Shown in pieces: positions 10,018-20,536 of a stretch of DNA of 31,618 bases (the stretch's first letter is position 1; each line of letters opens with the position of its first letter). Made by a program: the position numbers and the translations under genes. Source of the DNA: Rickettsiales bacterium (GTDB lineage: Bacteria; Pseudomonadota; Alphaproteobacteria; Rickettsiales; JANQQO01); assembly GCA_028289305.1 (NCBI GenBank), contig JANQQO010000101.1, positions 1 to 31,618 on the forward strand. Direction: 5' to 3'. The notes beneath the pieces were generated by a model that worked only from the letters and a program-made list of their open reading frames with translations, made no database searches and had not been told where the DNA came from.

Positions 10018-10068
10018 CGTGATTGGCTCACAAGGTCGTTAAAAAGATCTGCTGGTTTTTTTACTTTC

Positions 10069-10101
10069 TTCATCGTTTCTTCATATGGCCTATGGTAGCT
10101 T
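10069..10101 (+). promoter_or_regulatory. OmpR-family tandem box TTCA-N7-TTCA plus extended -10, upstream of pepSY-RR-HK
   Basis: TTCATC gtttc TTCATA (10069-10085), 10 nt, TGG-TAGCTT (-10 at 10096-10101). Same geometry as 12459-12491. Confidence 0.65.
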
Positions 10102-10107
10102 GGGCAT

Positions 10108-10491
10108 ATGAAAGTCGTACATGTCACATGTATTATTTTGCTGCTTAGCCTTACAGTAAGCGCCCCTGTATCTGCTGCATGCGTAGGTAGTATATGCACA
10201 GGAGCAGGGCTCTCCGGTGGCATCATCTCTAATATCCAAGAACAATTTGATGGGCGTATTGTCGGCATCAATAAGCTGTTTGATGACGAAGAAAGCACGT
10301 GTGAACCTCGCACTTATGAAGTTATCATTGATGGGGATCCTCAAACTGCATACGGCGTTGCCTGCCTACAGCCTGACGGTACTTGGAAAATGCAGAATCA
10401 TTACGAGGTCCAGGTACTTAATGCTGAAGGCGAGATTTCTATTGTCACCGTAGATGGTAGTACGGGAAATATAGAAGAGGTGGAAGAGTGA
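10108..10491 (+). CDS. secreted PepSY-domain protein with a cysteine-bounded insert
   Basis: Signal peptide; PepSY halves 'NIQEQFDGRIVGINKL' and 'YEVQVLNAEGEISIVTVDGSTGNI'; PepSY genes commonly precede PhoPQ/FeuPQ-type pairs. Confidence 0.7.
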   Translation: MKVVHVTCIILLLSLTVSAPVSAACVGSICTGAGLSGGIISNIQEQFDGRIVGINKLFDDEESTCEPRTYEVIIDGDPQTAYGVACLQPDGTWKMQNHYEVQVLNAEGEISIVTVDGSTGNIEEVEE

Positions 10492-11153
10492 AGGTATTGA
10501 TTGTTGAAGACGATAAAGAAATAGCAAACCAGCTCTCAGACTACCTTACTGAACATGGTTTTGTTACCCAGACTTCCTATACAGGTGAAGATGGTCAGTT
10601 TGAAGGAAGTGCTGGTGAATATGATGCGGTCTTATTAGACATAGGGCTGCCAGAAATAGACGGACTCTCTATTTTGCGAGGATGGCGTGAAGATGGCATT
10701 AAAACGCCTGTTATTATTTTAACGGCGCGCACCAGTAAGATGGAAACAGTGCAGGGATTGGAGGCGGGTGCTGATGACTATATTCACAAACCATTTGATA
10801 TAGAAGAAGTTGTTGCCAGGCTGAGGGTTAATATTCGTCGATATAAAGGGCATACAGGCAATATACTAAAATACAAGAATGTTACACTGGATCATAATAC
10901 AGGTCGTATATCACGAGACGACCAATTCATAAAATTAACACGTACTGAATTTCTCATGACACAATATTTATTTTTGAACCAAGGGCGACCAATAAGTGCT
11001 AGTGAGCTTGCTGAACATGCCTATGATGATTTTGACAACGACTCTGGTATTATTGCTCGCCATATTGCGAATATACGAAAAAAACTAGGAACAGACGTTA
11101 TTAGAACGGAAACCAATCGAGGCTATTATGTTCCGTTGGATAAAGAATCCTAG
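10488..11153 (+). CDS. OmpR/PhoP-family response regulator (FeuP-like)
   Basis: 'VLIVEDD', phospho-Asp 'LLDIGLP', 'PVIILTAR', 'GADDYIHKPF', winged helix 'LTRTEF', 'TNRGY'. Confidence 0.95.
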   Translation: MKVLIVEDDKEIANQLSDYLTEHGFVTQTSYTGEDGQFEGSAGEYDAVLLDIGLPEIDGLSILRGWREDGIKTPVIILTARTSKMETVQGLEAGADDYIHKPFDIEEVVARLRVNIRRYKGHTGNILKYKNVTLDHNTGRISRDDQFIKLTRTEFLMTQYLFLNQGRPISASELAEHAYDDFDNDSGIIARHIANIRKKLGTDVIRTETNRGYYVPLDKES

Positions 11154-12450
11154 ATCACTCAAACAACACGTCGTTGTTATTTCCATCATTACTGCGCTGC
11201 TTCTTACCAGCCTCTCAGGTGTGGCAATTATCTGGTCGTTTCACCAATCGATGGATCGCTTATTATTAGGATACCTGACTGCATATAGTGATGTATTAAT
11301 AGCAGCAACCCGAATAGAAAATGGCAAGGTAATATTTAAAAATCCTCAGTCCCTTGCCAACTTACCGCGTTATTGGCAAGTCACCACCCCACAAAACCAT
11401 ATTGCAAAATCTCCTACGTTAAGCCGTTTTCTAGAGACAAAAAACAGAACGGCCTTTTTTACCTTTAAATCCCAAAATGGGGAGGAGATAGTGGCCATCA
11501 CAAAAACGGTTACTTTCCCAAGAAACGTAGAAGTTACCTATCTCTCAGGCATGCAGTCAGGCATTGCATTTGCGTTCCTCGAACAAGAAAAACAGGCATT
11601 TTACACCAAAATATCTATGGTATTAGGCGGGCTCATGATGGCGTTTATTCTGCTTTCTTTGCTTTACGTACACATTATCACAAGCCCATTTGAGCGCATA
11701 AAAAACGCCCTTAGTGATATACGTAGCAGCAAAAAGAAGCGTCTAGGGAAGGATTTTCCGAAAGAAATCCAGCCGATGGCCCATGAGATTAACATGCTGT
11801 TGGATTATAATAAGGGCATTATCGAACGCTATCAAACTTTTGCAGGCAATCTTTCTCATGCCCTTAAGACACCGCTTTCTGTACTGAAGAATGAAGCCTC
11901 TTCTTCAAAATCCACTTTGGCAAAAAAAGTACTAGAGAAGGTGGAAATCATGCAAAAACTTGTTGACCGCAATCTTGCACGAGTCAAAGCAACAGGTAAT
12001 ACAGGGATTTTAGGCGCTGATATTACGATATATCCCACCATCGCACGTATCGCAAAAAATTTTGGAAAACTACATAACAAAGTGGTCAAGACCGAAGGTG
12101 ATGAAAATCTGCGTTTTCAAGGAAATGACGGTGATCTATATGAAATGGTAGGCAATATCGTTGAAAACGCCTGCATATACGCATGCGAGTATGTGCACAT
12201 TACACTTACCGAAGAAGACGATGATATACATATTATTGTGGAAGATGATGGACCAGGCATACCAGAAGAAAAACAGTATGATATTTTGGGTCGTGGTACA
12301 CGTCTTGATGAAGCCACTCCTGGTACGGGTATCGGCCTGGCGATTACGCAAGACCTGGTAGAGCTATATGAAGGAAAGATAGTATTGGGAAAATCGACAT
12401 TAGGGGGATTGAAGGTAGCTGTGATTTTGCCTCAGTTGAATTTTGTATGA
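11128..12450 (+). CDS. sensor histidine kinase (PhoQ/FeuQ-like)
   Basis: Two TMs, HAMP 'FPKEIQPMAHEIN', H-box 'LSHALKTPL', N-box 'GNIVENA', G-boxes 'EDDGPGI', 'GTGIGL'. Confidence 0.95.
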   Translation: MFRWIKNPRSLKQHVVVISIITALLLTSLSGVAIIWSFHQSMDRLLLGYLTAYSDVLIAATRIENGKVIFKNPQSLANLPRYWQVTTPQNHIAKSPTLSRFLETKNRTAFFTFKSQNGEEIVAITKTVTFPRNVEVTYLSGMQSGIAFAFLEQEKQAFYTKISMVLGGLMMAFILLSLLYVHIITSPFERIKNALSDIRSSKKKRLGKDFPKEIQPMAHEINMLLDYNKGIIERYQTFAGNLSHALKTPLSVLKNEASSSKSTLAKKVLEKVEIMQKLVDRNLARVKATGNTGILGADITIYPTIARIAKNFGKLHNKVVKTEGDENLRFQGNDGDLYEMVGNIVENACIYACEYVHITLTEEDDDIHIIVEDDGPGIPEEKQYDILGRGTRLDEATPGTGIGLAITQDLVELYEGKIVLGKSTLGGLKVAVILPQLNFV

Positions 12451-12458
12451 ATTTTTTC

Positions 12459-12491
12459 TTCATCAAGCATTCAACCATGGGGTGGTATAAC
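12459..12491 (+). promoter_or_regulatory. second TTCA-N7-TTCA box plus extended -10, upstream of the OMP operon
   Basis: TTCATC aagca TTCAAC (12459-12475), 10 nt, TGG-TATAAC (-10 at 12486-12491). Confidence 0.65.
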
Positions 12492-12533
12492 TCAACATAA
12501 TTAGTTTTTTACTTAGTAACTTATGGAGAGTTT

Positions 12534-13130
12534 ATGCGTTTACGTTCTTATGGATTAGCAGCGGGAATAGTTGCACTCTGCTTCGCTTCAGATGTGCAAG
12601 CAGCCAACAATAATGAACAAGAAGGTGCATATATAGCATTTAATACATTTGGAGTTTCACTAGGAGATCAGGACTTCACTGTTTCAGGTGCGGGCACAAC
12701 AGAACTGAGCTATGATTTTGGTTACGGCTTGGGCGCTGCTCTTGGGTATAGCTTTGGTAACGGAGTGCGGGCAGAAGGCGAGTTCGCATGGCGATCTAAT
12801 GAGCTAGATTCTTCAATCGCCAGTGGGGATCTAGATTCATTTGCAGGAATGGTTAATGGGTACTACGACATCCATAATACTAGCAAGTGGACACCCTATG
12901 TTGGTGCCGGTATAGGGCTGGCGCATGTAACAGATAGTGATGTTGATGACAATGTCTTTGCTTATCAAGGTATGGCCGGTGTTGGCTATACCGTATCGGA
13001 AACAAGCGACCTAGTGCTTGGCTATCGTTACTTTGCTACAGAAGACCCTGAATATACTATTTCTGGTAGTACCGTAGAAACGTCATACGACACACACAAC
13101 ATTGAAATTGCTTGGCGTTATAGATTCTAG
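12534..13130 (+). CDS. 8-stranded outer-membrane beta-barrel protein (OmpA-like/Omp25/Msp4-type)
   Basis: Signal peptide; 'GAALGYSFGNGVRAEGE', 'MVNGYYD', 'TPYVGAGIG', 'FAYQGMAGVGY'; terminal Phe 'RYRF'. Confidence 0.9.
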   Translation: MRLRSYGLAAGIVALCFASDVQAANNNEQEGAYIAFNTFGVSLGDQDFTVSGAGTTELSYDFGYGLGAALGYSFGNGVRAEGEFAWRSNELDSSIASGDLDSFAGMVNGYYDIHNTSKWTPYVGAGIGLAHVTDSDVDDNVFAYQGMAGVGYTVSETSDLVLGYRYFATEDPEYTISGSTVETSYDTHNIEIAWRYRF

Positions 13131-13161: not shown

Positions 13162-14403
13162 ATGCGACCCATTATCACCACATTAGCGCTACTGTTACTC
13201 TTACTCCTTGCTGGGTGTACGACAACACGGGATGTTAAGCCGCTCACGCATGTGGATCATGATTATGGGCAAACAGAAGATGAACAGCGCTTATTCAAAC
13301 GCTCACAGGAGACACATCAAGAACTCGAGAGAAAGGGATATATACTAAAAGACCCTGAGATAACGACGTATATTGAGCGTATCGCCCGTCCTTTAGTTCC
13401 TAAACAAGCAGCAAAAGCAGGCAATTTTAGGTTTTATGTGGTGCGCGACCCAACCGTTAATGCATTTGCTATGCCAAATGGGGGCATTTACTTACATCTT
13501 GGCTTACTCGCCCGTCTAGAAAATGAGCTACAACTTGCTCATTTATTAGCACATGAAATTACACATGTTGTCAAAAGACATGGCCTTAGAGGGTACGATG
13601 AAAGACGCTGGAAAACGACCACAGGAAACATCATGGGTGCATTTATAGGACCGACTCTAGGAGAGCTTCCTTTTGTGGCATCTATCGCTAGTCATAAGCG
13701 TGAATATGAAGAAGAGGCAGATGCTATGGCTTTAGATATACTTTCAAATAATGGATATAACATCACTAATGCGCCTGCGTTTTTTGATGTGCTAGAGGAG
13801 GTTAAAAACCCCGAACGTGTCGAGGGTTCTATCTGGAGCAGCCACCCAGACAGTAAAAAGCGTAAGGCAAGTGCTATAGCTATCGTACAAAGTGGTACCA
13901 TCGCCGTTAACCCAAAAGGAAGAGTGGGTAAGAAAGCATATGAGAAAGTGCGTACAAAATTGGTTAAGGCCAATCTTGATATGCAGCTGCTATCTAAACA
14001 CTATTCACTTGCATTGGAGGCGATAGATCGAGAACTTCGCTTCCACCCACAAGATGCCGAACTGTTCTACTATCGTGGCGAAGTATTTCACCGTATGTTT
14101 TCTGACCCTGAAGGTGCGGCACAAGAATATGCCTGGCTTTACGACAAAACCTTTGATGACGAGTTAAAGAAAAAGTTCACACAACGGAAGGGTGAGTTTT
14201 CTCGCGGTGCTCACCAAGCTTATAATAAAGCAATTAAGCTTAATGGTATAACAAACGCATATAGAGGTAAGGGGCTTTTGGCATATAAACAAAAACAATT
14301 TTCTGACGCCATTCCACTACTAGAGCATTATTTATCACACGGTAAAAATATTCGTGATCGTCGTTATATCACCCGTATTATTCAGGAGATGAGGAAGACA
14401 TGA
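13162..14403 (+). CDS. M48-family zinc metalloprotease lipoprotein with C-terminal TPR-like region (BepA-like)
   Basis: Lipobox LAGC; 'VNAFAMPNGGIY..GLL', HEXXH 'LAHEITH', 'EEEAD', 'SSHP'; helical repeats at the C-terminus. Confidence 0.88.
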   Translation: MRPIITTLALLLLLLLAGCTTTRDVKPLTHVDHDYGQTEDEQRLFKRSQETHQELERKGYILKDPEITTYIERIARPLVPKQAAKAGNFRFYVVRDPTVNAFAMPNGGIYLHLGLLARLENELQLAHLLAHEITHVVKRHGLRGYDERRWKTTTGNIMGAFIGPTLGELPFVASIASHKREYEEEADAMALDILSNNGYNITNAPAFFDVLEEVKNPERVEGSIWSSHPDSKKRKASAIAIVQSGTIAVNPKGRVGKKAYEKVRTKLVKANLDMQLLSKHYSLALEAIDRELRFHPQDAELFYYRGEVFHRMFSDPEGAAQEYAWLYDKTFDDELKKKFTQRKGEFSRGAHQAYNKAIKLNGITNAYRGKGLLAYKQKQFSDAIPLLEHYLSHGKNIRDRRYITRIIQEMRKT

Positions 14404-17658: not shown

Positions 17659-17690
17659 AGGGTGCTGCATTCGTGCGGCACCCTCTTTTC
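17659..17690 (+). terminator. intrinsic terminator after the RTX gene
   Basis: Stem AGGGTGCTGCA / TGCGGCACCCT with TTCG loop, followed by CTTTTC. Confidence 0.75.
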
Positions 17691-20464: not shown

Positions 20465-20497
20465 TTAACCATTTATTAACCTTTCTTATGGTATAAT
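20465..20497 (+). promoter_or_regulatory. CtrA box TTAA-N7-TTAAC at the -35 position plus TATAAT
   Basis: TTAA CCATTTA TTAAC (20465-20480), including the TTAACCAT half-site; TGG-TATAAT at 20492-20497. Confidence 0.75.
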
Positions 20498-20536
20498 CCG
20501 CCATATATTAGGTAATAATGGGTAGGAAGATTAAGA

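Follow-up and report, generated by a model that had tools for sequence, protein, structure and literature searches.

This study concerns two promoters in a 31,618-nucleotide (nt) stretch of DNA, contig JANQQO010000101.1 of assembly GCA_028289305.1, which derives from an uncultured alphaproteobacterium in a coral metagenome; the whole contig is called the window below. The promoters flank an operon for a small secreted protein, a response regulator, and a sensor histidine kinase, and the second of them precedes an operon that begins with a gene for an outer-membrane beta-barrel protein. We conclude that the locus is very probably a system of the type known as FeuP/FeuQ in Sinorhizobium meliloti, in which the regulator would activate both its own operon and the downstream operon through boxes of paired TTCA half-sites.

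The two promoters were read base for base. Both fit TTCATC-N5-TTCA-N9-TGG-TA, at positions 10069-10101 (site 1) and 12459-12491 (site 2), exactly as claimed in an earlier note on this DNA, which had described two promoters of identical geometry on either side of the two-component operon. Site 1 is TTCATC-N5-TTCATA-N10-TAGCTT and site 2 is TTCATC-N5-TTCAAC-N10-TATAAC; in each, TGG lies immediately upstream of the −10 hexamer, and the exact 10-mer TTTCTTCATC is common to both. No −35 hexamer lies 16-18 nt from either −10, which fits dependence on an activator, and a consensus scan found no sigma-70-type promoter at site 1 or site 2. Instead of a −35 hexamer, direct repeats with a period of 10-11 base pairs (bp) fill the −35 region about 10 bp from the −10. 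This arrangement supports a class II geometry of the OmpR/PhoB type for the boxes, the layout that the note had recognized from direct repeats in the −35 position, and a like layout is found at the autoregulated feuN-feuPQ promoter of S. meliloti. The ATG of the first gene of the sensor operon is at 10108, 6 nt past the −10; the sensor-operon mRNA looks leaderless, with the A of this ATG as its predicted start.

Scans for further sites covered the whole 1.76-Mb assembly (287 contigs, 91% complete). The bare pattern TTCA-N7-TTCA is not rare, occurring three times in the window where 1.7 were expected and 69 times in the genome. The composite TTCA-N7-TTCA-N9-TGn-TA, searched on both strands, was found at sites 1 and 2 only. 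Of 2000 shuffles of the intergenic pair, 17 gave a shared 10-mer together with 20 of 37 matches, a result that is suggestive only as evidence against chance. The decisive independent test used a weight matrix that had been trained on 27 sites from orthologous loci, the window's own sites being left out. Of 3.5 million positions, the matrix ranked box 2 fifth (score 16.6) and box 1 seventh (16.5); the top score in the genome, 25.0, was obtained at 12451 on the minus strand, next to box 2, and the runner-up scored 17.7. Among all hits above 13, boxes 1 and 2 alone are intergenic and lie upstream of a same-strand gene with a correctly spaced TAnnn[T/C] −10. A predicted regulon of two promoters is thus supported in an assembly of this completeness, in keeping with the self-contained regulon that the note had envisaged. 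A candidate third target at C139:98 has a correctly spaced −10 and was rejected because only a six-codon frame follows it; further candidates (C115, C179, C265, C276, and others) were inside genes or lacked a −10.

Orthologous loci were collected by kinase searches across genomes of the same order and metagenome contigs. Full-length relatives of the kinase, 39-48% identical, were present in 8 of 400 scored genomes and on metagenome contigs, and the regulator is 60-68% identical across 14 distinct loci. A related-locus search with the kinase over genome contigs gave only an unrelated Bacteroidota match. In 13 of the 14 loci the sequence (AAAA)TTCAT-N6-TTC[A/C] stands upstream of the operon with TAnnnT exactly 12 nt on, so the motif is conserved at orthologous promoters, as it should be if the note was right; the bases beside the conserved box carry no information across loci. 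The AAAA that stands before the first half-site in most relatives is missing from box 1. In 11 of the 14 loci the small gene's ATG(AAA) lies 6-7 nt past the −10, as in the window, from which we infer that the transcript is leaderless. The extended −10 TG, which had been taken as part of the promoter pattern, holds for downstream array promoters (four of six) and not for operon promoters (3 of 14). One locus, L028 (G142), has no small gene and no box upstream of its operon, and has kept a single array of the kind described below before a remote gene of the 17-kDa-antigen type. In the relative G141, strong-type boxes TTCATnnAAAATTCAT with a correctly spaced −10 were also seen at L038:1234 and L039:932 (contigs C22 and C105), one upstream of a gene for a 259-amino-acid (aa) protein and one upstream of a gene for a small secreted protein, so that additional targets are probable in this relative.

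The relationship to FeuP and FeuQ was examined by searches in both directions against CP090106.1 (L044), an annotated S. meliloti chromosome carrying feuN, feuP, and feuQ. The window regulator is 47% identical to FeuP, which is its best hit on that chromosome (196 bits vs. 115 for the next), and FeuP in turn finds the window regulator first in this genome (192 bits; a paralogue on C51, 180 bits). The best hit of the window kinase is feuQ (141 bits vs. 67; 27-33% identity), and that of FeuQ is the window kinase (162 bits over residues 4-458; next, 72). By reciprocal best hits, regulator and kinase are orthologous to FeuP and FeuQ, and the note's description of a FeuPQ-like pair was apt. The 3.7-Mb reference record is labelled 'plasmid pSymB'; it has feuNPQ, ccmI, and ccmE and is evidently the S. 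meliloti chromosome. The regulator has the Pfam domains PF00072 and PF00486, and its phospho-acceptor D51 is invariant in the alignment. NCBIfam models gave only matches below cut-off for the regulator (PmrA, 169 bits; QseB, 158; CreB, 132) and for the kinase, whose best match was PhoQ. A Foldseek search of the predicted regulator model against Swiss-Prot returned QseB, CusR, CtrA, and others at 32-39% and did not list FeuP; it is uninformative for membership.

In S. meliloti, TTCA-N7-TTCA is 'Motif 3' of a transcription-start map and was proposed to be the FeuP binding site (PMC3616915). Motif 3 was found upstream of 12 genes, five of them FeuP-dependent, and also at the promoter of feuN, the gene for a small periplasmic modulator co-transcribed with feuPQ (PMC3616915, which cites Griffitts 2008 and Carlyon 2010 for FeuN-FeuP-FeuQ). 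At the same-strand class II sites of SMc00809, ndvA, SMc01586, and feuN, the motif ends 23-25 nt before the mapped start (PMC3616915, Table S17), and genes with this layout rise on FeuP over-expression (PMC3616915). We read the feuN promoter in the chromosome as TTCATT-N5-TTCAGC-N10-TAATGA, a geometry identical to that of the window sites. Applied to the window, the S. meliloti box-to-start distance predicts starts at 10108 (10084+24) and near 12498 (12474+24). From a start near 12498 the downstream transcript would have a leader some 36 nt long that contains GGAGAG (12525-12530).

At the second promoter the earlier description of the binding site was correct for the direct repeats of site 2 and missed two inverted half-sites, TGAA at 12437 and 12448, which lie in exact 11-bp phase with them. 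Positions 12437-12473 thus form an array of four half-sites, head-to-head, with an 11-bp period. Its distal dimer site has the top matrix score noted above (25.0, rank 1) and is therefore the strongest in the genome; on the minus strand its arms read as two copies of AAAATTCAT, and they are the best-conserved portion of the array. The conserved ATGAATTTT pair is present in eight loci. In five relatives TGAA-N7-TGAA-N7-TTCA-N7-TTCA follows the kinase gene, in a sixth an outer-membrane-protein gene intervenes and the array is found about 1.4 kb farther downstream, and two more loci have a partial array. A −10 was present at a fixed 12 nt in six of six arrays, and a usable −35 was absent. At L025 and L030 the array separates the operon from a small gene of divergent orientation and each arm has its own −10, which indicates that the array there serves both directions. 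In the window no −10 follows the distal site on the minus strand, and a role of the minus-strand arm as an antisense promoter was rejected, as none of eight arrays downstream of the kinase or a neighbouring gene has a correctly spaced TAnnnT on that strand. Conservation in the arrays is confined to the half-sites, and the N7 spacers show neither conservation nor complementarity. This pattern argues for a protein that contacts a single face of the DNA, and it speaks against an RNA hairpin.

The array pattern was then sought in 401 genomes of the order. It was found in eight (G000, G034, G035, G037, G093, G141, G142, and G154, from at least six families), which are exactly the eight with a kinase orthologue, and in none of the other 393; a reversed-pattern control gave no match. 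The association is complete, although, with eight genomes that are kin, it does not amount to a formal probability. The strict single-box pattern was mildly enriched, with 21 matches in 11.9 Mb of genomes with the system vs. 7 in 10.2 Mb without it, and the four-half-site pattern discriminates far better. On the S. meliloti chromosome there are five four-half-site arrays at no more than one mismatch vs. none in the control, and one of the five contains the listed SMc01557 site. Since arrays are present in S. meliloti too, FeuP regulons appear to have had the array from an earlier time. We see about an even chance that, from Rhizobiales to this distant order, the FeuP-type operator is more than a direct repeat and consists of four half-sites arranged head-to-head, with a strong inverted distal dimer site next to a weak proximal one at the −35 position, and that in the present lineage, whose genome is reduced and coral-associated, the regulon is down to two promoters, its output has been rewired from the 17-kDa type to a barrel protein and a BepA-like protease that goes with it, and its sensor operon gives a leaderless mRNA. 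As far as we searched the literature, a head-to-head array of FeuP-type operators has not been described previously.

We propose that the phosphorylated regulator binds direct TTCA half-sites, 11 bp apart, as head-to-tail dimers. These dimer sites would stand in for the −35, ending 12 nt before the −10, and the bound regulator would activate RNA polymerase there. At promoter 1 (box at 10069) the predicted result is positive autoregulation of the small protein-regulator-kinase operon, with a leaderless mRNA from the ATG at 10108. At promoter 2 a putative high-affinity inverted site at 12437-12456 abuts a weaker proximal site at 12459-12473, and the distal dimer probably loads the weak site cooperatively. 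Transcription would then proceed from about 12498 through the genes for the barrel protein, the BepA-like M48 protease, and the lipoprotein, perhaps including the RTX gene. The features of the two promoters and of the genes they are predicted to serve are listed in Table 1.

Table 1. Promoter elements, genes, and terminator-like hairpin of the two operons (window positions)
Feature	Position	Strand	Remarks
Site 1, parts	TTCA 10069-10072; TTCA 10080-10083; TGG 10093-10095; TAGCTT 10096-10101	+	
Box 1	10065-10084	+	Two direct half-sites in the −35 position of the sensor-operon promoter
TGG and −10 hexamer TAGCTT	10093-10101	+	12 nt after the second TTCA of box 1
Small secreted protein, 127 aa	10108-10491	+	First gene of operon; feuN position
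Response regulator, OmpR/PhoB family, FeuP orthologue by best hits	10488-11153	+	Pfam Response_reg and Trans_reg_C
Sensor histidine kinase, FeuQ orthologue by best hits	11128-12450	+	Pfam; PhoQ-type HAMP domain
Distal inverted dimer site, putative	12437-12456	−	Minus-strand reading AAAAATTCAT ACAAAATTCA; overlaps kinase stop codon
Site 2, parts	TTCA 12459-12462; TTCA 12470-12473; TGG 12483-12485; TATAAC 12486-12491	+	
Box 2	12459-12473	+	Proximal dimer site, the weaker one of the array, at the −35 of the downstream promoter
Extended −10, TGG TATAAC	12483-12491	+	Predicted start near 12498
Outer-membrane beta-barrel protein, 198 aa	12534-13130	+	Pfam OMP_b-brl, Surface_Ag_2; signal peptide; ATG at 12534
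M48 metalloprotease with TPR repeats, lipobox	13162-14403	+	BepA-like architecture
Probable lipoprotein, family unknown, 249 aa	14400-15149	+	Start overlaps M48 stop
RTX-repeat protein, 811 aa	15200-17635	+	Pfam HemolysinCabind
Terminator-like hairpin, 11 pairs, T-rich tail	17659-17684	+	−20.7 kcal/mol

The three genes of the sensor operon overlap one another, the GTG start of the regulator gene overlapping the stop of the small gene (GTGA), and sites 1 and 2 flank them. The small protein belongs to a family with the motif IQxQFxGRVVGV ... VQVLTxxGxVxIVTV and an optional cysteine (Cys)-hairpin insert (alignment A3). The family has a short form of 77-95 aa (L023, L030, L036) and a long form, in which an insert of about 35 aa resembles the C-terminus of the 17-kDa antigen in its two Cys and its DGxW motif. 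In the window protein the Cys hairpin resembles the C-termini of 17-kDa-antigen lipoproteins and matches the lipoprotein encoded downstream of feuQ. A search for FeuN homology gave a BLASTP E value of 0.66 and an hhalign profile-comparison probability of 0.1, and we regard the small protein as a positional analogue of FeuN only, judging by its place in the operon. The PepSY label that it had been given is not supported: PF03413 scored 14.4 bits vs. a cut-off of 24 (E 0.047), and sub-threshold matches occurred in 4 of 11 family members (best E 0.0023).

In the downstream operon, the M48 protease scored 100 bits with the BepA NCBIfam equivalog vs. a cut-off of 570, and what it has in common with BepA is the M48-plus-TPR architecture only. 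The gap before the RTX gene is 50 nt and has no terminator; this gene is possibly the last of the transcription unit, and the hairpin listed in Table 1 is the only strong terminator-like one. Among the relatives the array usually lies upstream of a glycine-zipper gene of the 17-kDa-antigen type, for a secreted protein or lipoprotein, either directly behind the kinase gene or far off, and such a gene looks like the conserved core target. Array-linked genes matching Rick_17kDa_Anti or 17kDa_Anti_2 are at L046:282-872, L047:296-787, and L048:2440-2937 (minus strand), and more array-linked genes of the 17-kDa type are at L022:8294-8887 and L023:7707-8318 (minus strand). The window is the exception, as its array precedes the operon for the barrel protein, M48 protease, and lipoprotein. 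The genome's own 17-kDa-antigen-type lipoprotein gene (C77:3374-3709, minus strand) has a sigma-70-like promoter, TTGGCA-N16-TATAAG, and no FeuP-type box, which suggests that the regulon was rewired in this lineage. A barrel homologue is nearby in one relative only, and there it lies before the array, not after it. The proposal of a portable sensor-to-output module is not supported, since the outer-membrane protein-M48-lipoprotein operon is unlinked to the system in relatives. Loci of relatives also contain genes for a TLC ATP/ADP translocase and ankyrin repeats (L037:8280-9341, L036:6047-7156), and the window barrel protein (12534-13130) matches Surface_Ag_2 and the Rickettsia Adr adhesin model; together, these translocase, ankyrin, and adhesin-type matches provide hints of a host-associated, Rickettsiales-like lifestyle for the coral-metagenome lineage.

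Several observations weigh against the conclusion that a FeuP/FeuQ-type regulator activates both operons through these boxes. The FeuP box of S. meliloti is itself a 'candidate' site only (PMC3616915). Box 1 is weak among operon boxes, scoring 16.5 vs. 22-29 for most relatives. The recognition helix of the window regulator differs from that of FeuP at several positions while the motif is the same. There is no terminator between the kinase gene and the downstream operon, and read-through from the kinase gene may add to downstream expression. A search for RNA runs with the locus sequence found none, the source coral metagenome giving the only matches. Finally, the C51 regulator shares 43% identity with FeuP, its recognition helix is nearer FeuP's than that of the window regulator, and it might conceivably cross-bind at the boxes. 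It is encoded in a second regulator-kinase pair (C51:1340-2996), before which no TTCA box was seen. We consider it improbable, all the same, that the boxes are real and are bound by another OmpR-family regulator, be it this FeuP-like paralogue or CtrA, a widespread alphaproteobacterial cell-cycle regulator. For CtrA speak its half-sites, which are one base off, and a perfect CtrA-type box in a like promoter layout at window position 20465; however, nearly all sites have C rather than A in both half-sites, and the patchy distribution of the array misfits a widespread regulator. Against any other regulator stand the perfect co-occurrence of the array with this kinase over the 401 genomes, the box that 13 of 14 loci have upstream of the sensor operon itself, and the marking of FeuP-dependent genes by the same motif in S. 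meliloti.

The effect of the sites could also be negative. The bound regulator might mainly repress, or the interrupted palindrome after the kinase gene might curb read-through as a roadblock or as a hairpin in the RNA; the array does overlap the kinase gene at its end, a weak hairpin can form from the inner arms, and the missing terminator between the two operons would suit such a role. A hairpin is difficult to reconcile with conservation of the half-sites alone, with unconserved and non-complementary N7 spacers, and with the lack of a U-tract after the array. Also against a negative effect are a −10 at the same 12-nt distance in all six arrays with no usable −35, and the rise of S. meliloti genes of this layout on FeuP over-expression, and we judge the whole proposal very unlikely. 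It is extremely improbable that the likeness of the two promoters arose by chance between AT-rich intergenic regions or is a functionless remnant of a local duplication. The chance level of bare TTCA-N7-TTCA in the window and the moderate significance of the shuffle test (17/2000) would permit it, but the box is conserved across families with its flanks randomized, the independently trained matrix ranks it high genome-wide, and the array is in eight of eight kinase genomes vs. 0 of 393 others. Activation through FeuP-type boxes by the window's own regulator accounts for these observations with very good probability.

The locus is a well-supported but ordinary case of the known FeuPQ system, an envelope sensor of rhizobia whose box was already proposed in 2013, and no new kind of regulation comes to light in it. 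What it adds is modest: a head-to-head array, the full association of this array with the kinase, a layout that looks leaderless, and a different target. Until now the FeuP site had been no more than a candidate, mined from the promoters of a single species; a box that is kept across families whose kinases are about 40% identical, and that tracks the kinase in 401 genomes, gives it independent comparative support. The operator can be read from its AAAATTCAT half-sites, their 11-bp period, and, where present, the head-to-head array, and could be used to predict FeuP regulons in uncultured Alphaproteobacteria. What is predicted here is a very small envelope-stress circuit with an outer-membrane protein, a dedicated protease, and a lipoprotein as its output.

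The promoters resemble those of several known systems. Pho-box promoters activated by PhoB are cases of OmpR/PhoB class II activation, and they share with the window promoters a winged-helix regulator and two direct repeats, with a period of about 11 bp, that take the place of the −35 and stop about 10 bp short of the −10. They differ in the half-site, which is CTGTCAT vs. TTCAT here, and in the signal, and to our knowledge a head-to-head distal dimer site is no part of them. The 'cre tag' bound by CreB in E. coli and Aeromonas is TTCACnnnnnnTTCAC (PMC3660660), in which the half-site core, TTCA, is nearly the same and the direct repeats are likewise 11 bp apart; the window regulator, however, scored 132 bits with the CreB model vs. 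169 with PmrA and 158 with QseB, and FeuP is its closest characterized relative (47%). The CtrA box, TTAA-N7-TTAA(C), agrees in half-site spacing and class II layout and has a perfect example in the window at 20465; it differs by A vs. C in each half-site, and the TTCA array tracks the FeuQ-like kinase rather than a widespread regulator. That example, at 20465-20500, is TTAACCATTTATTAAC followed by TGG-TATAAT in class II layout, and A for C in each half-site is its sole difference from the FeuP-type box.

FeuNPQ of S. meliloti is the system with which the comparison extends furthest. The window system differs from it in that its small protein has no detectable homology to FeuN, its kinase aligns with FeuQ by BLASTP over the C-terminal two-thirds only (residues 151-435; 27-33% identity), its sensor operon is predicted to be leaderless vs. 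a 28-nt leader at feuN, and its target is an operon for a barrel protein, an M48 protease, and a lipoprotein, in a regulon of apparently two promoters in the assembly. The two systems agree in the order small secreted protein, regulator, kinase; in the motif, its 11-bp period, the 12 nt to the −10, and the presence of the box at the operon's own promoter; in a gene for a 17-kDa-antigen-type lipoprotein, which lies behind feuQ in S. meliloti and behind the kinase gene in most of the relatives; and in head-to-head arrays, which S. meliloti has too.

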